In this document: positions 1,684-41,914 of the stretch, one piece after another
Layout: each line of letters begins with the position of its first letter
Position numbering within the stretch: position 1 is the first letter of the stretch
Assembly (NCBI GenBank): GCA_963811315.1
Contig: CAWERH010000013.1
Span: 134,123 to 198,122 of the forward strand
Source of the DNA: an uncultured delta proteobacterium
GTDB lineage: Bacteria > Desulfobacterota > Binatia > UBA9968
DNA length: 64,000 nt
Direction of reading: 5' to 3'
Program-made: the position numbers and the translations under genes
Notes under the pieces: model-generated
Told to the model about the DNA's origin: nothing
Databases searched by the model: none
Seen by the model: only the letters and a program-made list of their open reading frames with translations

Positions 1684-3597
1684 TCAGCTCTTCGTGTTTG
1701 AGGCTAGTAACTCCAACTCCTGCCAGCGCCCATAGCAGACTTCAAGCTCTTGTCCGATCGACTCAAGCCGCTCCATGCTAGCAGTGATCTTCTCGCTCCC
1801 CTGGCGGTAAAAGTCGCCATGGCCGACGTGACCCTGCAATTCCGTTTGCTCGATCTCCAAGGCTTCGATCTTTGCGGGCAAGGCTGCCAATTCCCGCTGC
1901 TCTTTATAGGTGAGCTTACGGGGACTAGCGCCTTTTTTAGTTTCGGCGAACGTTGCTGGCTTCTGCCTGCTCGCCGGTTTTTTCGGCTCACTGAGCGCGT
2001 CGGGAATCTGCCGTTGATAGCGTTCCCAGTCGTCATAACCGCCGGCATATTCACCGAACTTGCCGTCGCCCTCGAACACTAACGTGCTGGTCACGACGTT
2101 GTCGAGAAAAGTTCGGTCATGGCTGACGAGCAGCAAGGTTCCTTCGTACTCGGAAAGAAGCTCTTCCAAAAGCTCCAACGTGTCGACATCCAAATCATTG
2201 GTCGGCTCGTCGAGAACTATCATGTTCGCCGACTGGGTGAAGATTTTTGCCAAAAGCAAACGATTGCGCTCGCCGCCGGATAACGCCTTTACCGGCGAAT
2301 CGATGCGTTGAGGCGGGAACAAAAAGTCTTTCAGGTAACCGATCACGTGGCGCGAACGTCCGCGCACCGTGACGTGGTCCGAGTCGCTGATATTTTCGCG
2401 CACGGTCTTTTCGGGATCGAGCGTGCGGCGGTGCTGGTCGAAATAGGCTAGTTGTAACCGCGTGCCCAAAACGACTTCGCCGGTAGTCGGTTCGAGCTCG
2501 CCAAGGATCAGCTTAAGCAATGTGCTTTTCCCGGAGCCGTTCGGACCGATGATGCCGACGCGATCGCCGCGCAGAATGCGCGTCGATAGATCCCGGACGA
2601 TGACGTTCTCACCATAACAAAAGCTGACCCGACGCACGTCGACTACGAGTTTGCCCGACTGTCCACCGGCGTCGATACCGAAGCGGGCTTTGCCTTGGGC
2701 TTCTAGGCGCTGAGCTTTCTCCTTGCGCAGCGCTTGTAACTCGCGCACGCGTCCTTCATTGCGCGTCCGTCTTGCCTTAACGCCGCGGCGAATCCAAGCC
2801 TCCTCTTCAGCCAGTTTTTTGTCGAACTTAGCGCTGGCGCGATCCTCGATCTCCAAGAGTTCGTCTTTTTTGCTGAGATAAGCGTCAAAGTCGCCGGGAA
2901 ACGAGGTCAGCCTGCCGCGATCGAGCTCGACGATGCGCGTTGCCAGGCGGCGCACAAAGGTCCGGTCATGGGTGATGAACATGACCGCGCCGCTGTAGTT
3001 GAGGAGATGTTTCTCCAGCCAGGTGATCGCATTGATGTCGAGATGGTTGGTCGGTTCGTCGAGCAGGAGCAGATCCGGCTCGCTCACCAAGGCGCGCGCC
3101 AGCATGATTTGCCGGCGTGTCCCGCCGGAACAGTCGGCGAGGCGTTTGTCCTCGGGCAAGCTCAATCGGGTCAAGATGGTCTCAACTTTTTGATTGACGT
3201 TCCAACCGCCGAACGCCTCGATGCGGGATTGCAGTTGCGCCAGGCGCCGCAAAGCCATGGGGTCGGCGGCGCCTGCTTCGTGCGAGACTTGGTGGTACTC
3301 GCTAAGGAGCGCGCCGATCTCGCCAAGGCCACCGGCAACAACTTCGAAAATCGTTTGATCCGTATCCGGCGGCACTTCCTGTTCCAAGTGGCCGACCCGC
3401 AGCGTCTCCGTTCGCCGAGTCTCGCCTTCGTCCGGCACCGCTGCGCCCGTGATGACGCGAAACAACGTGGTCTTTCCGGTGCCGTTGCGACCCACCAAGC
3501 AAACCCGCTCGCCCACGTCGATGTGAAAATCGACATGCGCCAGCAGCGGCAAGTGGCCGAATGCAAGAGAGACATTTTCGAGGCGCAGTAAGGACAT
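1684..3597 (-). CDS. ABC-F family ATPase (Uup/EttA-like; two ABC domains plus C-terminal coiled coil)
   Basis: Two Walker A motifs GRNGTGKTT and GPNGSGKST, two LSGG signatures (LSGGTRRQIM, LSGGERNRL), no TM segments, 637 aa. Confidence 0.9.
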   Translation of the reverse strand: MSLLRLENVSLAFGHLPLLAHVDFHIDVGERVCLVGRNGTGKTTLFRVITGAAVPDEGETRRTETLRVGHLEQEVPPDTDQTIFEVVAGGLGEIGALLSEYHQVSHEAGAADPMALRRLAQLQSRIEAFGGWNVNQKVETILTRLSLPEDKRLADCSGGTRRQIMLARALVSEPDLLLLDEPTNHLDINAITWLEKHLLNYSGAVMFITHDRTFVRRLATRIVELDRGRLTSFPGDFDAYLSKKDELLEIEDRASAKFDKKLAEEEAWIRRGVKARRTRNEGRVRELQALRKEKAQRLEAQGKARFGIDAGGQSGKLVVDVRRVSFCYGENVIVRDLSTRILRGDRVGIIGPNGSGKSTLLKLILGELEPTTGEVVLGTRLQLAYFDQHRRTLDPEKTVRENISDSDHVTVRGRSRHVIGYLKDFLFPPQRIDSPVKALSGGERNRLLLAKIFTQSANMIVLDEPTNDLDVDTLELLEELLSEYEGTLLLVSHDRTFLDNVVTSTLVFEGDGKFGEYAGGYDDWERYQRQIPDALSEPKKPASRQKPATFAETKKGASPRKLTYKEQRELAALPAKIEALEIEQTELQGHVGHGDFYRQGSEKITASMERLESIGQELEVCYGRWQELELLASNTKS

Positions 3598-3664: not shown

Positions 3665-3958
3665 CTAACGCATTAATGCGGTGGCAAAGGCCAATGCGGC
3701 AACGGTCGCCGTGGCGATCAGCAAGACGATTACGATCCGCAATTTCTTTTGGGTTTTCTCCAGCAACGCATGGATCACCTTGATTTGCACGTCGACGTTT
3801 TCATTGAGCACCGACTGGATTTCCATGGCCTTTTCCAGCGCATCGAACTGAGCCTCGACGCCATTGGATCTCGGCTCGGCGAGACGATTGCGCAAACTGA
3901 TCAGCGCAGCAGCGCCAGTCGGGATCAAGAGCCCCAGCTTTTTGAGCAATGCCTTCAT
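3665..3958 (-). CDS. Hypothetical small protein with C-terminal transmembrane anchor
   Basis: 97 aa; C-terminal IVIVLLIATATVAALAFATALM hydrophobic helix; upstream of ABC-F on same strand. Confidence 0.4.
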   Translation of the reverse strand: MKALLKKLGLLIPTGAAALISLRNRLAEPRSNGVEAQFDALEKAMEIQSVLNENVDVQIKVIHALLEKTQKKLRIVIVLLIATATVAALAFATALMR

Positions 3959-4087: not shown

Positions 4088-5077
4088 TCAAGCTCTCAAT
4101 GCCGGAAGAACTTCTCGACCCAGCAGCTCGATTTGCTCGTACCAATCGGCGTAGCGAAACCGTAAATCGTAAACGATGTGGTCGGCACCGGCCGTTTCGT
4201 AGGCGCGGCTCTCGCCGACGATATCCGCCGGCGTGCCCGCCAAGACCAAACCGCGAATATCGTCCGGCGTATCAAAAACACCGCCGGGCGGCTTTACCCA
4301 AGTCGGAAACTTGTTTGCTTCGGAGATCAGAGCCTCGAAGTTGATTCTGCTGAGCGCATCCTGACGATCGCGAGCGACACTGGTGAATGGCATGACCGCA
4401 GCGCCAATCATCGGCTTGGCGGCTTTGGCGCAGAGCTCGCCGAGGTAAGATTTCAGTTTGCGAAAGGTCGCTAGCGTTGTGCGCGCCGGCATCCAACCGT
4501 CGCAATATTCCACGGCGCGCCGGCAAGCGGCCGGCGTGCCGCCGCCGTACCAGATGGGTATTGGTTTTACCGGCGTGGGTTTCAGTGCCACATCGGTAAA
4601 ATTGAAATACTCGTTCTTGAAGGTTATGCGCTCGCCGCTCCAGAGGCGGCGGCATATATCCACATTCGTCCTGACCAGTTCGGCGCGCGCGGCGATATCG
4701 GTCGGATAGCCCGCCGCTGCGAACTCATGAGGGAATCCGCCTAAGCCGATGCCCATGATGACCCGGCCCCCCGAGATGGTGCTCAAGCCGGCGAAAAGCT
4801 GCGCGAGATGAATTGGATGACGATGACAAATCGTCATTGACGTGCCGAGGGAGATCGTGCGAGTCGTCGCAGCGATCGCCGACAGGATTAATAAGCCCTC
4901 GATATGAGTGTTGTCGTTCCCCTCGATGCCGTGGGGCTCGAAAACCAAATGATCTCTCACCCAAACCGAATCGAAGCCAAGCGCCTCGGCTCTTCGGGCA
5001 CCGTCGAGACAATCGATGGCTGAGGCAAACTCACAAAAGTGCGGCAGCAATAAACCAAACTTGAGCGTGGTTGCCAT
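4088..5077 (-). CDS. LLM-class (luciferase-like) flavin/F420-dependent oxidoreductase
   Basis: MATTLKFGLLLPHF...GFDSVWVRDHL... typical LLM N-terminus and TIM-barrel length (329 aa). Confidence 0.85.
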   Translation of the reverse strand: MATTLKFGLLLPHFCEFASAIDCLDGARRAEALGFDSVWVRDHLVFEPHGIEGNDNTHIEGLLILSAIAATTRTISLGTSMTICHRHPIHLAQLFAGLSTISGGRVIMGIGLGGFPHEFAAAGYPTDIAARAELVRTNVDICRRLWSGERITFKNEYFNFTDVALKPTPVKPIPIWYGGGTPAACRRAVEYCDGWMPARTTLATFRKLKSYLGELCAKAAKPMIGAAVMPFTSVARDRQDALSRINFEALISEANKFPTWVKPPGGVFDTPDDIRGLVLAGTPADIVGESRAYETAGADHIVYDLRFRYADWYEQIELLGREVLPALRA

Positions 5078-5672: not shown

Positions 5673-6176
5673 GCCGAAGTTTCCTGCGTTGGACGCATGG
5701 GAATTTTAAACCATCCTGAGTGAACATACCAAGCTCACTCAAGGTTCATCACGGCGGAAACGGGCCGACGCCTTTTCTGAACAATTGCTCTAGGCCCGCT
5801 CGCCACTTGATCGCGGATAATGCATTGCGAAATCATTCGATCTGGCAACAATGACATCGGGCGAAGCGCACAGACAGTACACGCATCTTGACCTTAAGCG
5901 CGAGCGGACTCTTCTCAGCGAGCCAATGGCGAATTCGCCGACTTGCAGTCTGACACGATCCCACATGGGAGATCAGACCGTGCACTCCGCTTCCTTCGCC
6001 ACTATAGCTTGCAACAATACGTATTATAAATAATAGTTATATCTAAACTTCTAAGCTAACACTAGAGTAATTTCTCTGGCGGCGAAATGACCAAAATTGA
6101 GCCCCCCGGCAAACCGACCTTGGCGTCTTCCCGCCAGAGATTGATGCGCAAGTGTCCAGGTTTTATCTAATTTAGC

Positions 6177-6653
6177 TTATGAGTTTTTCCCATGTTGCTT
6201 CATAGCGGCTTCTGCCCGCTTATGAAGTTCCTCGGGCGAAAGGTCTTCTTTGTGGGTCGCAATCGACCACACATGGCCAAAGGGGTCTTCTACCGTCCCA
6301 GACCGATCACCGTAGAATTGGTCCTCCACGGGACGGAGCACCTTCGCGCCGGCCGCGACAGCCCGGTCGAAGCATGAATCCACGTCTCTCACATATAGAA
6401 CAAGACTTACGCCGGTTCCTCCAATCGACTGTGGGCTACGAAATCCCATATCCGGGAACTCGTCCGCCAACATGATCGCGGAACCATCGATTTCGATTTC
6501 CGCATGCCCAACGGTGCCGTTCGGCCCATCCATTCGCATGCGCTGCGAAGCGCCGAACACTTTCTTATAATAATCGATCGCGCGACCCGCCCCCTTTATG
6601 ATGAGATAAGGGGTCACGCTGTGATAGCCATCGGGAATCGGTTTTACTGCCAT
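6177..6653 (-). CDS. VOC family protein (glyoxalase/bleomycin-resistance fold, PhnB-like)
   Basis: MAVKPIPDGYHSVTPYLIIKGAGRAIDYYKKVFGA...; start ATG 6653 with GGAGGTG RBS; track ORF extends to 6701 upstream of the RBS. Confidence 0.85.
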   Translation of the reverse strand: MAVKPIPDGYHSVTPYLIIKGAGRAIDYYKKVFGASQRMRMDGPNGTVGHAEIEIDGSAIMLADEFPDMGFRSPQSIGGTGVSLVLYVRDVDSCFDRAVAAGAKVLRPVEDQFYGDRSGTVEDPFGHVWSIATHKEDLSPEELHKRAEAAMKQHGKNS

Positions 6654-7345: not shown

Positions 7346-8282
7346 TTAAACTTTAGTGAAGACTTCCTGCGCCATCCACTCCATCCGCTCGAACGTTTCA
7401 TTGATGCTCGGCTGGCGCACGTCGAAGATCATGGTATCGACTCCCGCATCGCGGTAGGCGCGGATGTCGGAGGCGATCTCTTCGGCGCCGCCCATGAAGC
7501 GGCGGCGCCGGCCCTCGATCTTTTTTTCCTTGTCGAAGAGCGAGCCTTTGAGGGCGACGCGAATTTGTTTTGGGTCGCGGCCGGCTTTTTGCGCGTACTC
7601 GGTCAGAGTGGCCATGTCTTTCTTGATGTGCTCGGGTTCGAGCGGGATCGTCGGCACGCCTCCGATCGGGTGCCAGCCGTCGCCCAACTGTCCGGCGCGC
7701 CGCAACGCTTGCTTGCTATGGCCGCCGATCCAGATGGGAATCGCCGGTTTTTGCACTGGCTTGGGAAGAAAAATAATATTGGAAAACTTGCAGTACTTAC
7801 CATTGAAGGAAGGATTGTCGCTAGTCCACAGCTCTCTGAAGGCTTGGATGTACTCGTCGGTCACTTTGCCGCGTTCTTCGTAGGGCGGCGCTTTTAGATT
7901 TTCAAACTCCTCTTTCATCCAACCGACACCCAAACCGGCGATCACCCTGCCGTTCGACAACACGTCGAGACTCGCGAGCATTTTAGCGGTGATGATCGGA
8001 TTGCGATACGGCGCGATCATCACACTGGTGATGAATTTGATTGTTTTGGTGGCGCCAGCAAGGAATCCCATGGTCGCCAACGTTTCAAGATGGTAACCAG
8101 TGCCCGGGTATTTGCCGTCGACGGTGTAGGGATAGGGCACGGAAATATCGCGCGGCACGATCACGTGATCGGCGATCGTGAGGCAATGCAGTCCCAGCGC
8201 TTCGGCGCGTTTGCGCGAAGCGCACCAAGTCGTCGGCCTTTACCGCCGCGCTCGACGCCGGCAGATGGAGTCCAAAATCCAT
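7346..8282 (-). CDS. LLM-class F420/flavin-dependent oxidoreductase, frame-shifted near 8205-8212
   Basis: N-terminus MDFGLHLPASSAAVKADDLVRFAQ (8282..) continues after a 1-nt shift as RAEALGLHCLTIADHVIVPRDISVPYPY... (frame of 7346..8164); shift at caaa run. Confidence 0.7.
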
Positions 8283-18101: not shown

Positions 18102-19189
18102 GCCGTAAAGATGGCGGGCGTTTTCGCATAAGATCTTTTCGACGATATGAGGCGGCACGTCTTCCCGGGCGCGCAGGTTCTTGACGAACTCCGGTTCCTT
18201 CGACGGATCATTATGACCGTAATCCGAGCCGATGACGATGATGATCCTCGCCGATATAGGTGAGCAGATGCGGCAATTCTTCGTCGGCCTCGCAGGCGAT
18301 CCAGAACCGATAGTCGCGAAACAAATCCTGCGGATTCTTATTCTTTAAATCCGCGCGCACCGACCGCCGCAGCACGTGAAAGATGTAGGGCACCCAGCTC
18401 GCGGCCGCTTCGATGAAGCCGAAACGGAGCTTGGGAAACTGCTCGGGAATACGATTGGCGACCAGATCCCGGAATGCGATCACCGGCAGAACGCGATTGT
18501 GGGCAAAGGTGTGATTGCGCTCGACGTCGAACGGCTGCATCAGGTAGCGGCTCCCCGAACCGGTATGGATGCAGATCGTTAAATCGAGCTTTTCGGCCAA
18601 GCGCGTAGATCGGCAAGAAATACGGGTTGTCCAGAGTCAGATTGCCTTCCATGCCGCGAAAGAAACACTCCCACCGCGCCCTGCTCTTTCGCCCATTTCA
18701 TTTCCACCAACGAGGCCTCTATATCCCGCAGCGGCAAGATCGCGACCCATTTGAGCCGCTCCGCCGCCTTGGCGCAGGCATCGGCGATGAAGCGGTTATA
18801 GGCGCGGCACAGGGCGGTCTCGAGCTTCGGATCGTCGGTGAGATAGACCAGAAACAGCGTCGGATAGATCACCTGAATCTCCACACCGAGCTTGTCCATG
18901 TCTTTTAATCGCGCTAACGGATCGGTCAGTTCCCGCACGCCGAGATGAATATCGCCCCGCCCCGATTCTTTTTTTGCGCCGATGGCGTGATCAAGCTGTA
19001 ACTCGCCTTCCCCGCCGGCTTGGGAAAAATTTCGCCGTCGATGAGCCAAAACGCATTGCGCTCTTTGTACCAGGTGTCGTCGGGGATCTTGGCCAGCACC
19101 GGACGGCGCGGATACATTTCTTTGTCGATATAGCTCCACATCGCTTCCGATTCGGCGATGTGCGTGTCCGCGTCTAAAACTCCGGGCAT
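18102..19189 (-). CDS. Amidohydrolase-2 family protein, at least 3 frameshifts
   Basis: MPGVLDADTHIAESE... start ATG 19189; pieces in 18926..19204, 18579..19139, 18211..18600 and a final ...IIVIGSDYGHNDPS...LYGVA* ending TAA 18102-18104. Confidence 0.65.
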
Positions 19190-19207
19190 GATTTCGATCC
19201 TCAAACT

Positions 19208-19243
19208 CCGTTCAAGCAGTTCAAATCGTTCAAGCCGTTCAAA
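19208..19243. repeat. Tandem 9-bp repeat x4 (CCGTTCAAG CAGTTCAAA TCGTTCAAG CCGTTCAAA)
   Basis: Directly visible; lies in 5' region of amidohydrolase gene (start 19189, minus) just downstream of SBP gene stop (19277). Confidence 0.8.
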
Positions 19244-19276
19244 CCGTCGGAAGGAACGGCCATAGTTCGCGATCGG

Positions 19277-23042: not shown

Positions 23043-23050
23043 GACAAATT

Positions 23051-23138
23051 GGAGTGATGGAGTAATGGAATGTTGGAGCATTGGGTAAGAAGCGATTCGG
23101 CCTCACCCATTACTCCACCACTCCATTACTCCAACTCC
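23051..23138. repeat. Imperfect inverted repeat / hairpin (TGGAGTAATGGA vs TCCATTACTCCA x2)
   Basis: 23058-23069 pairs perfectly with 23122-23133 and 11/12 with 23106-23117; between OCD stop and VOC start. Confidence 0.7.
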
Positions 23139-39609: not shown

Positions 39610-40335
39610 CTACGGCATCTCTTCCAACAGCTTGCCGAAGCCTTTTACTTTCTGCCGCAAATGCAGCCGTTTCTGCACCGCCCAGACGCGGGCCGGCACC
39701 GCGTGAACGACGGGCACCTGCAAATCCTCTTCGAGCATGTGAATGATATCGAGACAGCGCCAGCCGGTGCCGAGCATGTAAATGCCATCGGCGCCGGGAT
39801 TTTTGAGAAACGCCTGCCGGGTATGCCCGTAGATTTCCGTCGAGGCCAAACGCCCCACGTCCGCGAAATCGACTTTCATCCCAGCCATCGCCAACACTTC
39901 GAAACCGGCTTCCTGGAAGTAGCGGGTAAACATATCGTTGATGCTGCCAACGAAGTAGGTCACACCGACAAATTTTTTCACCCCAAGCGCGCGCAACGCC
40001 TCCACTTGAGTCTGCGCCGCGGTCACGATGGGGATTTTAAATTCCGCTTCCCACTCTTTGACGATCTTTTCTTCGCCCTTGAAGCCATGAACCATGAACG
40101 GCGGCGCGCCTTCGGGATGAATCAGATCGACGCCTTCCTTGGCAAGCTCGTCGACTTTCTCGTGCACGGCATTGAGCGCGGCGCGGAATTCGTCTTCGGT
40201 GCCGCGTTTGAAATCGAGATAGACCGGTACGACGCCGACGCCTTCGGGTAACAAGCGGATAAATTCTTCCAGCGAACCGGGCCGATGGGTCGGCTTAACA
40301 ACGCCAACCACTCCACGCCAACTGGTAAAGACCAT
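39610..40335 (-). CDS. Asp/Glu/hydantoin-racemase-superfamily protein (arylmalonate decarboxylase / maleate isomerase-like)
   Basis: 241 aa, two-domain racemase-like pattern with conserved Cys (GTGWRCLD); family assignment from overall pattern. Confidence 0.55.
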   Translation of the reverse strand: MVFTSWRGVVGVVKPTHRPGSLEEFIRLLPEGVGVVPVYLDFKRGTEDEFRAALNAVHEKVDELAKEGVDLIHPEGAPPFMVHGFKGEEKIVKEWEAEFKIPIVTAAQTQVEALRALGVKKFVGVTYFVGSINDMFTRYFQEAGFEVLAMAGMKVDFADVGRLASTEIYGHTRQAFLKNPGADGIYMLGTGWRCLDIIHMLEEDLQVPVVHAVPARVWAVQKRLHLRQKVKGFGKLLEEMP

Positions 40336-40359
40336 AAACTCGTTCCAATCGTTTCAAGG

Positions 40360-40436
40360 GTTCCAATCGTTCCATTCGTTTCAGAGACTCGATTCCAACC
40401 ACTTGGAACCTCTGAAACCATTGGAACAATTGGAAC
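40360..40436. repeat. Nested inverted repeat element: 27-bp imperfect arms (40360-40386 / 40410-40436) around an inner TTCCAA-ccac-TTGGAA hairpin; preceded by direct copy cgttccaatcgtttcaag (40341-40358)
   Basis: About 7 copies of GTTCCAA(T)/ATTGGAAC in both orientations within 100 bp; between UbiD-family stop (40445) and AMDase-like start (40335). Confidence 0.8.
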
Positions 40437-40444
40437 CGTCTTCG

Positions 40445-41914
40445 TTATTTAAATACCTGCGGAAACTTCGCTTTGAGCTGCTGACGTACGTTCTCCGGCA
40501 CGTCCACGACTTTGGGAAATTCTCCTTTGAGTTTTCGGTTGTAAGGCTGGCACGCGTCAATCAAAATCCGATTGTTGAAATTGCCCGGCAAAAACATCGG
40601 ATCGCGTCCCGATGACCAGGCCTTCTGGACGATGTCGATGTCGGTGACCGGATCAAAGCGTGTGCCCATCGCCCACAGAACCTGATCCATGTCCGAGCAG
40701 TCCACGTCGTCGTCGACGACCACCGTCCACTTGCCGTTGTACGCGCCGGCCATGCAATTACTTGCGACGTGGAGCACGTTACGCGCGTGACCGGGATAGC
40801 GCTGGCGAATTTGTATCGCGGTAAAACGGGTGGCGGGCGCGCCTTCATGGTTCCACACGCCGAGAATGTCGGGCAGCCCGCAGGATTCCAGCGCCTTCCA
40901 CACCTCGGCGGCGCCGGCGATGCCTTTGAGCAGTCCGGTCTCGTCGACCGGTTTGTGCTGCGGCGCGCAGGTGAGAATCGGATCGTTGCGGTACATGACG
41001 GTTTTGACGTTTAAATAGGGTCGCGGCACGACGTCGTCGGAATAGTAGCCCATCCATTCGCCGAACGGCCCTTCGGGTTGGCTTTGACCGGGCACGGCTT
41101 CGCCTTCGATGACGATCTCGGCATCGGCGGGAATTGGGAAACCTGTGAACGGACCCTTGACGACTTCGACAGGTTCGCCGCGGATGCCGCCGGCAAAGTC
41201 ATACTCGGAAATGCCGGATGGCAACGGGCTGGCCGAAAGCAAATAGAGCAGCGGATCTTGACCGCAGACGATAGCGAACTTGCAGCTTTGGCCGCGCTCG
41301 AAATATTTGTCACGATGAATCCGGCCGTGTTTACCTTCGGTGATCTGGCAACCGATGGTTTTGCCGTCGTAAACTTCACAACGATAGGCGCCGAAGTTGT
41401 ACCAGTCGGCGTCGGGATCTTTGGTAATGCACATATCGGCGGTGCCGATGTAACGGTGCGTGTCGAGTTGGTGGTGAATCGGCACGGGGAGCTTGAGCAC
41501 GTCGACTTTATCGCCTTCCAGGACATTTTCGAAGATCGGCCCGGTCTTGACCATTTTGGGCTTGAGCATCTTCATGTCGGTCATGACGTGATGGTACGCC
41601 TTGACGATGTCGGCTTTGTGCTCGTATTCGAGCGGTAGTCCCAGGGTGAGCGCGACCCGCTTGATCGTCGAAAACTGGCCGTAGAGCGTTCGATAGCCTT
41701 TGGCATACCCGGGGACTTCGTCGAACAGGATCGCGGGCGCTTTGCCTTTGCCGCCTTCGGTGAGCATCTGTGTGACCGCGCCCATCTCGCGATCCCAGTG
41801 GGCTCCACTGACCTTTTGCAACTCGCCCAGCTTTTCGACCTGGTCAATCCAATCGCGCAATCCTCGATAGCTGACAGCGCTCTGGGATGCCCCTATCCTC
41901 TCGGGTCTTGCCAT
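40445..41914 (-). CDS. UbiD-family (prFMN-dependent) reversible decarboxylase
   Basis: 489 aa; full-length colinearity with UbiD/Fdc1-type decarboxylases. Confidence 0.85.
   Translation of the reverse strand: MARPERIGASQSAVSYRGLRDWIDQVEKLGELQKVSGAHWDREMGAVTQMLTEGGKGKAPAILFDEVPGYAKGYRTLYGQFSTIKRVALTLGLPLEYEHKADIVKAYHHVMTDMKMLKPKMVKTGPIFENVLEGDKVDVLKLPVPIHHQLDTHRYIGTADMCITKDPDADWYNFGAYRCEVYDGKTIGCQITEGKHGRIHRDKYFERGQSCKFAIVCGQDPLLYLLSASPLPSGISEYDFAGGIRGEPVEVVKGPFTGFPIPADAEIVIEGEAVPGQSQPEGPFGEWMGYYSDDVVPRPYLNVKTVMYRNDPILTCAPQHKPVDETGLLKGIAGAAEVWKALESCGLPDILGVWNHEGAPATRFTAIQIRQRYPGHARNVLHVASNCMAGAYNGKWTVVVDDDVDCSDMDQVLWAMGTRFDPVTDIDIVQKAWSSGRDPMFLPGNFNNRILIDACQPYNRKLKGEFPKVVDVPENVRQQLKAKFPQVFK

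Follow-up and report, generated by a model that had tools for sequence, protein, structure and literature searches.

The DNA analysed here (the window) is a 64,000-nucleotide stretch of contig CAWERH010000013.1 from an uncultured delta proteobacterium of the Binatia lineage. Within it, a UbiD-family decarboxylase gene is followed on the minus strand by a gene whose product resembles arylmalonate decarboxylase (AMDase), and the 109-bp spacer between the two contains, at positions 40340-40437, an array of short repeat units that continues into an inverted array. An earlier reading of the letters alone (the sequence-only reading) had described a nested inverted and direct repeat at 40341-40436 between these genes. 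All of its parts were found where it had placed them, and both gene assignments were confirmed by Pfam. The locus is laid out as follows.

40445-41914, minus strand: upstream gene, UbiD-family decarboxylase of 489 amino acids (Pfam UbiD_N/UbiD/UbiD_C)
40445-40447, minus strand: stop codon TAA of the UbiD gene, left edge of the element region
40438-40444, minus strand: 7-nt linker CGAAGAC from the UbiD stop codon to the first repeat unit
40403-40437, minus strand: 5' arm in the mRNA sense, four 9-nt units, GGTTCCAAtt GTTCCAAtg GTTTCAGag GTTCCAAg (repeat search and Tandem Repeats Finder, TRF)
40342-40386, minus strand: 3' arm in the mRNA sense, five 9-nt units, ..CTGAAAC gaATGGAAC gaTTGGAAC ccTTGAAAC gaTTGGAAC
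40342, 40351, 40360, 40369 and 40378, plus strand: left array, GTTCCAA, GTTTCAA, GTTCCAA, GTTCCAT and GTTTCAG, each followed by two variable bases
40403, 40412, 40421 and 40430, plus strand: inverted units TTGGAAC, CTGAAAC, TTGGAAC and TTGGAAC
40393-40408: inner hairpin TTCCAA-CCAC-TTGGAA, tip of the long hairpin, with the minus-strand loop GTGG (40392-40408 on the minus strand in the minimum free energy, MFE, structure)
40387-40391, minus strand: asymmetric bulge (MFE structure)
40359-40437, minus strand: principal hairpin predicted for the bicistronic mRNA (-48.5 kcal/mol in a 121-nt context, z = -5.55)
40333-40341, minus strand: A/U-rich 6-nt linker GAGTTT and ATG of the AMDase-like gene, without a Shine-Dalgarno (SD) sequence
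39610-40335, minus strand: downstream gene, AMDase-like protein of the Asp-Glu racemase superfamily, 241 amino acids (Pfam Amdase, 1.3e-24; Amdase/Asp_Glu_race)

Read on the plus strand, the left array consists of five units of the form GTTYCAR+NN with a 9-bp period; TRF returned for the element a period of 9, with 4.6 and 2.3 copies. The unit consensus of the GTTCCA family is the degenerate nonamer GTTCCAAYS, arranged as an array and then an inverted array, and the repeat unit as written out for a four-copy array, (GTTCCAANN)4, is GTTCCAANN. In all, about ten copies of the unit make up the hairpin. The best arms, 40359-40386 and 40410-40437, are 28 nt long and 89% complementary. The direct copy that the sequence-only reading had set apart from the inverted arms is present, but is no separate feature, since it corresponds to two further units of one 9-bp array. 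Five of the 11 exact GTTCCAA sites of the window lie inside the 97 bp of the element, and the element sequence also occurs in the independent assemblies L002, L003 and L124 (99% amino acid identity in the flanks, spacer p-distance of 0.011). The element is real and beyond chance.

RNA folding of the minus-strand transcript, which had been suggested as a check, gave the strong hairpin listed above. The plus strand folded at -39.5 kcal/mol (z = -5.35), and none of 200 shuffled sequences matched the native fold on either strand. The MFE fold leaves over the last two units of the 3' arm (40342-40358), and in an alternative register 40342-40374 pairs with 40404-40436.

A local regulatory site, either an operator array for a dimeric regulator or an attenuator or terminator between the genes, would agree with the dyad symmetry, the repeated half-sites and the co-oriented gene pair, and the sequence-only reading had put forward an operator and an attenuator. 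However, the operon of sister lineages works with a spacer of 12-24 bp, and arrays of such units lie at dozens of unrelated loci, convergent spacers included. For an operator, the co-directional pair lacks a promoter-like site: a promoter scan revealed no sigma-70-like promoter in or beside the element. For an attenuator, no terminator-like stem with a U-tract was detected in or beside the element (the RNA after the hairpin is GAGUUUAUGG), no match to Rfam at gathering score was found in the window or in 13 related loci, and a permissive Rfam search of the element returned only generic miRNA-like hairpins, far below threshold. We regard a local operator or attenuator as effectively excluded.

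A metagenome scan with the AMDase protein returned 80 orthologous soil loci at 83-99% amino acid identity, 69 of them distinct. Their UbiD-AMDase spacers were sorted into the following classes.

Class A, 27 distinct loci: GTTCCA hairpin as in the window
Class B, 23 distinct loci: short 12-24-bp spacer with an SD
Class C, 6 distinct loci: CGCAAAG octamer hairpin
Class D, 1 distinct locus: TGGAGT octamer hairpin
Class E, 3 distinct loci: direct TTGAAC arrays
Class F, 4 distinct loci: AAATCCG heptamer elements
Other spacers, 5 distinct loci

In L138, L147, L150, L154, L157, L164 and L175 the spacer contains a CGCAAAG/CGCCAAG octamer palindrome followed by a canonical SD, and at several loci of the CGCAAAG type the octamer palindrome is nested in an outer GATTCGGA...TCCGAAATC inverted repeat. 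In L187, the spacer is filled by the TGGAGT family.

At the upstream edge of the class A spacers, the UbiD protein ends in ..FK* and is one to three residues shorter than in element-free lineages (..FKAQS* or ..FKSQS*), and the first GTTYC lies 8 nt from its stop codon in the window and 4-10 nt in the orthologues. At the downstream edge, the final unit, CGATTGGAAC, stands 6-7 nt upstream of the ATG in most class A orthologues measured. An SD-like 4-mer at -18 to -4 was found at one of the 27 class A loci, compared with 38 of the 42 loci of the remaining classes; class A loci invariably use ATG as the start codon, and nine of the 23 class B loci use GTG. The element supplies the UbiD stop codon, has replaced the SD, and is old at the locus.

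Class A spacers (19 orthologues) can be aligned and have a loop motif in common, which argues for a single origin. The spacer classes are interleaved in a neighbour-joining tree built from the AMDase coding sequence, indicating that the spacer has been gained, lost, replaced or recombined repeatedly. We find support for a history in which a GTTCCA copy entered the spacer once, long ago, replaced on entry the last one to three UbiD codons together with the stop codon and the SD, and has since been inherited across lineages that are ca. 42% apart at third codon positions. The corresponding locus of the closest relative, metagenome-assembled genome (MAG) MFD02242.bin.2.64 (L119, "uncultured delta proteobacterium"), is 82.7% identical to that of the window at the nucleotide level over UbiD, spacer and AMDase and carries the element in a spacer of the same 109-bp length. 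At the nucleotide level, the window genes are 77-81% identical to those of L040 and L050, from MAGs titled Candidatus Binatia, and the window is accordingly placed in Binatia.

Closer relatives were represented by contigs L002-L005, which were obtained by exact-protein look-ups of the flanking genes and encode AMDase proteins that are 100% identical. L002 keeps the 109-bp spacer with several substitutions, and L003 has exactly one 9-bp unit fewer. L004 has a 12-bp spacer, AAGGAGTCGATC, with a canonical SD and no element, a GTG start codon, and a UbiD protein three residues longer. When the filled site (window, L002, L003) was compared with the empty site of L004, 116 nt stood in place of 25 nt, and no target-site duplication was seen. 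The 3' end of UbiD in L004 (1-136, versus window positions 40448-40583) is 89.7% identical, against 97% for the AMDase gene next to it; the change in divergence coincides exactly with the spacer and suggests recombination there.

The presence, absence and one-unit length difference among strains with an identical AMDase protein, the interleaving of the spacer classes on the AMDase tree, and the shift in flank divergence across the element in L004 are what would be expected if the element were a selfish or neutral repeat, that is, a non-autonomous mobile sequence or a product of slippage or recombination, which is tolerated without a host function and affects the operon only incidentally. The class to which it belongs is also multi-copy, with several families and composite nested forms (see below), descent from master copies would fit its fixed arm order, and at a second, octamer element of the window the upstream gene differs in one relative, L208. 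Yet neither a target-site duplication nor conserved termini mark the element as mobile, copies from different loci have only the unit in common, and no transposase linked to the element was seen: none of the ten window proteins scanned has a transposase domain, and no link to a RAYT (REP-associated tyrosine transposase) was found in the 64-kb window and the 8-kb loci.

The pattern of conservation among the 19 orthologues also argues against a neutral repeat. The mean pairwise p-distance was 0.06-0.08 in the hexamer cores, 0.31 at the bases between the cores, 0.41 in the loop, 0.36-0.51 in the flanking linkers, and 0.42 at third codon positions of AMDase. Compared with the loop, the inter-core bases or third codon positions, the cores show about six-fold stronger conservation, and nothing else within the element is constrained. 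The cores have been retained intact while the loop and the linkers drifted near-neutrally. Internal slippage or conversion would have homogenised the inter-core bases as well, which was not seen, and so does not account for the pattern. We consider a selfish or neutral origin without host function to be unlikely.

In the same alignment, the class A arms are gapless and the 9-nt phase is strict. Together with the six-fold difference between the cores and the inter-core bases, the loop and synonymous-like sites, this favours a different explanation, according to which the phased, inward-pointing GTTCCA/TGGAAC hexamers (9-nt spacing) form a binding-site array for a sequence-specific factor, and the potential to form a hairpin is a by-product. 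Such a factor could bind DNA, as a nucleoid, partition-like or transposase-like protein, or could be an oligomeric RNA-binding protein whose target is the transcript. That the variable bases are no more complementary than expected (see below) also favours such an array. RNA-structure selection on the stem, however, can also hold the cores constant, and no candidate protein was found. The distribution of the units in other genomes bears on this explanation as well.

GTDB species genomes were scanned with the 3-unit pattern GTTYCAANNGTTYCAANNGTTYCA, and at least 118 stretches matched, many of them in Binatia-type MAGs and at least ten in the closest relative, MFD02242.bin.2.64. The further genomic copies that the sequence-only reading had proposed to look for therefore exist at the level of the family, but they share only the 9-bp unit. 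The architecture common to these loci is a GTTCCA array, a variable centre, which is sometimes the G/C-rich palindrome CCCCCGCGACGCGGGGG, and a TGGAAC array. TRF analysis of 281 kb, later 610 kb, of Binatia-type DNA revealed dozens of arrays with 6-9-bp units. In the 610 kb, 36 array/inverted-array pairs were counted, which represent at least eight unit families (GTTCCAA, GTTCAA, TGGAGT, CGCAAAG, CACGAAGG, AAATCCG, AAGGATG and AGTTAGG). The order of the arms is fixed, GTTCCA standing before TGGAAC in 30 pairs and after it in three. With gene calls that were crude, the elements lay in 35 co-directional, eight convergent and four divergent spacers against a background of 99, 25 and 24, respectively, and no clear gene-context bias was seen. 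The strand orientation of unpaired arrays (14 versus six) was dominated by one locus and was not used.

Hairpin arrays of GTTCCA units were also present in a few MAGs labelled Syntrophobacter, Thermodesulfobacteriota, Eisenbacteria, Acidobacteriota, Microthrixaceae and Bacteroidales. Many of the matches in non-Binatia genomes, and nearly all of the viral ones, lack inverted arms and represent perfect direct or coding 9-bp repeats, so raw counts overstate the spread of the family; the inverted architecture with GTTCCA first was found in only two of ca. 155 viral arrays. A near-perfect direct triplet, ATGTTCCAAATGTTCCAAATGTTCCA, recurs in the unrelated IMG/VR viral contigs L223, L224, L226, L237, L245 and L248. 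It is well supported that the element belongs, as one resident copy, to a dispersed class of intergenic palindromes whose several families are each made of short tandem units, and equally that this class is typical of soil Binatia (Binatota) genomes and sporadic in other phyla.

Some members of the class are composite, with GTTCCA or GTTCAA arrays placed around a G/C-rich palindrome (..CCTCCCCCGCGACGCGGGGGAGG..) as if palindromes had been nested (L033, ca. 3260-3370; L087, ca. 7560-7660; L108, ca. 4820-4940 and ca. 6059-6188; L109, ca. 932-1051).

The fixed arm order (30 versus three) and the recurrence of hexamer hairpin arrays in MAGs of other phyla agree with a binding-site array. On the other hand, the same genomes contain at least seven further unit families with this architecture, and sister lineages carry several of these at the same spacer; such interchangeability points to either a role at the level of the architecture or many separate factors. 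The near-background proportions of co-directional, convergent and divergent spacers are a further objection. On balance, a binding-site array is possible but, in our judgement, rather improbable.

We tentatively favour, with a little less than even confidence, the view that the element, a palindrome of the dispersed class and old at this locus, has been retained as an intercistronic mRNA hairpin that affects the stability of the transcript or the translation of AMDase. On this view, a bicistronic UbiD-AMDase mRNA would contain the element, whose 6-bp GUUCCA/UGGAAC helices, with small internal loops between them, would make up one long hairpin with a slippery register. At its base, the UbiD stop codon (4-10 nt before the first unit) and the SD-less AUG (6-7 nt after the last) would be drawn close to each other, so that translation of AMDase would depend on the structure. 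The AMDase start codon might then be used through SD-independent initiation on the A/U-rich linker, through coupling to UbiD translation, or both. The hairpin could also shield the upstream mRNA segment from 3' exonucleases, as has been proposed for hairpins of repetitive extragenic palindromic (REP) sequences and of short tandemly repeated repetitive (STRR) sequences. REP hairpins stabilise upstream mRNA, for example at malE-malF. The contrast between conserved cores and variable inter-core bases would be accounted for by purifying selection on the stem.

Folding of the orthologous spacers was examined from the same viewpoint. Each of the 22 class A variants forms a long hairpin, with energies from -31 to -57 kcal/mol. 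The RNAalifold consensus of the 19 orthologues contains 26 pairs, which join the four 5' units to the final four 3' units and include the outermost ones; three of the 26 pairs show compensatory changes. The sense fold was more stable than the antisense fold in 16 of the 22 variants, and in a fixed unit register 49 G.U cells were counted versus 26 A.C cells, which is suggestive only. The number of G.U pairs in the MFE fold of each strand was equal (76 versus 72). The evidence for a signal specific to the transcribed strand is weak.

Several observations weigh against a retained mRNA hairpin. The excess of G.U over A.C is only about two to one, among sequences that are phylogenetically related. 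Constrained folding at 16 loci, in which the first 13 nt after the UbiD stop codon were melted to represent a ribosome terminating there, did not consistently open the start region, as alternative registers of pairing took over. Among 28 family members from different loci, complementarity of the inter-core bases was 0.772, versus 0.772 +/- 0.03 in a resampling null, and was also no better than in a shifted-register control; we therefore abandoned the view that a perfect palindrome is maintained in the arms. Given the few compensatory changes and this null result, the signal is one of motif conservation more than of structural covariation. Strain L004, near-identical to the window, lacks the element altogether. 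The palindromes of other families in the AMDase spacer stand upstream of a normal SD, so that replacement of the SD is no general property of the class. Finally, it is only the anatomy and the conservation of the hairpin that suggest its function.

A broader proposal, which we put forward as speculative and rather doubtful, is that these elements form an undescribed superfamily of modular short-unit palindromes in Binatia and some further soil and sediment lineages, with cores under host-level selection, fixed polarity, and families that are interchangeable at one intercistronic site, where the GTTCCA family can replace the SD and the stop codon. If it were true, it would imply hairpin-dependent initiation that is SD-independent or coupled, or a factor that reads the phased GTTCCA/UGGAAC hexamers.

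The element resembles known repeat classes, and is moderately rather than radically new. A full-text literature search for the motif and for repeats of Binatia or Binatota found no description of such an element. Its closest known analogues, by comparison of their organisation, are the STRR sequences of cyanobacteria and the TAACTGA repeats of Beggiatoaceae. Like the element, cyanobacterial STRR sequences consist of short tandem units in intergenic positions at many loci, with several unit families per genome, and their arrays are able to form hairpins between co-transcribed genes, such as hupS and hupL. The element likewise has a short tandem unit, within the range of 5-11 nt, in a non-coding spacer, and this unit occurs at many loci beside other families. 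The STRR hairpins of hupS-hupL were proposed to stabilise transcripts or to couple translation, a function that is unproven (PMC2670836). The STRR unit is a heptamer and its hosts are filamentous cyanobacteria, whereas here the unit has 9 nt (a 6-nt core and three degenerate positions) and the hosts are uncultured soil Binatia; an STRR sequence in the strict sense is thereby ruled out. Also unlike STRR sequences, the arrays described here are paired with an inverted array in fixed polarity, and the window copy replaces the SD and supplies a stop codon.

TAACTGA repeats of marine Beggiatoaceae adjoin start codons, in spacers that mostly have no canonical ribosome-binding site; they are patchy across phyla with no known transfer mechanism, and a post-transcriptional or translational role has been suggested for them (MacGregor 2015; PMC4679880). 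The element shares with them the short-unit repeat beside an SD-less start codon and the patchy occurrence across phyla. It differs from them in that the Beggiatoaceae repeats are heptamers, occur as 169 direct sets versus one indirect set, and form no hairpins, and no history at an orthologous locus has been described for them. The role suggested here for the hairpin would match the proposals, never demonstrated, that were made for the STRR sequences of hupS-hupL and for TAACTGA repeats. Long simple sequence repeats (LSSR), with units of 5-11 nt (Mrazek et al. 2007, as summarised in PMC4679880), have in common with the element the class of unit length, a sporadic phylogeny and slippage-like changes in unit number (compare the one unit fewer in L003). 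As far as that summary describes them, LSSR are usually near-perfect direct arrays, unlike the units here, which are degenerate outside the 6-nt core and palindromic.

Of the alternatives offered by the sequence-only reading, a small element resembling a REP sequence or a miniature inverted-repeat transposable element (MITE) comes closest: copies exist at the level of the family, and strains differ in its presence. No GTAG-type REP sequence and no target-site duplication were found, however, and only the unit is shared between copies. As with REP sequences, bacterial interspersed mosaic elements (BIME) and REPINs, the last of which are a family of miniature mobile DNA in bacteria (PMC3116915), we are dealing with multi-copy extragenic palindromes in operons and at gene ends that often fill the spacer. 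REP sequences, in contrast, are single imperfect palindromes of ca. 20-40 nt, present in near-identical copies, with a conserved 5' tetranucleotide and a cognate RAYT. The arms described here are tandem 9-mers, and the loops and inter-core bases vary freely between copies; for these reasons a REP or REPIN was rejected. With MITEs (Correia/NEMIS, RUP, ERIC) the element shares a length of ca. 100 bp, inverted terminal arms, insertion/deletion polymorphism among strains and frequent co-transcription with the flanks, but it lacks a target-site duplication, a full-length consensus or a related insertion sequence, and, unlike in a decaying MITE, the cores are conserved in an old orthologous copy. 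The missing target-site duplication and the absence of high full-length identity among copies led us to reject a MITE too. In its working, the element would probably be most like STRR- or REP-type intercistronic hairpins.

Integron attC sites carry core sites with the consensus 5'-RYYYAAC ... GTTRRRY-3' at the ends of an imperfect palindrome. By inspection, the polarity of the element is the opposite (GTT.. first, ..AAC last), and GTTCCAA does not fit GTTRRRY, so attC was excluded. Mimicry of sigma-54 or extracytoplasmic function (ECF) -35 elements, NarL-type 7-2-7 sites, the tRNA T-loop and CsrA GGA motifs was set aside, as none of these fits the spacing or could be tested.

For decades, short-unit intergenic repeats such as STRR and TAACTGA have been on record, and no function has been established for them. 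The UbiD-AMDase spacer offers one orthologous site with ca. 70 natural variants, which carry the element, no element or another family and thus constitute a natural allelic series, and this series makes the effect of such repeats on intra-operon expression directly testable. The constraint on the cores is clear, and loss of the SD goes closely together with presence of the element. An abundant repeat class is also flagged here in Binatota, a phylum known only from metagenomes, where such repeats may break short-read assemblies. Three contigs stop inside the loop of the element (the end of L001, at 2375, and the starts of L131 and L133), and palindromes of this kind therefore appear to break metagenome assemblies; L001 and L131, at least, look like short-read assemblies.

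The window contains two further arrays of the class.

23050-23133, plus strand: second element of the same architecture, TGGAGTRA octamer array, loop and inverted array, between co-directional genes
19208-19247, minus strand: related direct array, (GTTCAA+3) in 4.4 copies, no inverted partner, in a co-directional spacer

The hairpin at 23050-23133 is flanked by an ornithine cyclodeaminase/mu-crystallin-like gene on one side and a glyoxalase-like gene on the other, and a normal SD follows it. Strain contigs keep this element; in L208, the upstream gene is a different one and the left arm is shorter, placing a break in synteny at the element. The array at 19208-19247, whose unit is related to GTTCCAA, is adjoined by an NMT1-like binding-protein gene and an amidohydrolase gene. 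The Amidohydro_2-type gene at 18211-19204 appears split over three frames (18926-19204, 18579-19139 and 18211-18600), which may reflect either a pseudogene or indel errors of the assembly.

In MAG MFD02242.bin.2.64, positions 1-8000 of contig L007 contain seven GTTCCA arrays within 6 kb, all in the same orientation and without inverted partners. The same contig carries a 92-nt duplicate with 97% identity (266-357 and 3732-3823), which lies inside small open reading frames of the minus strand.

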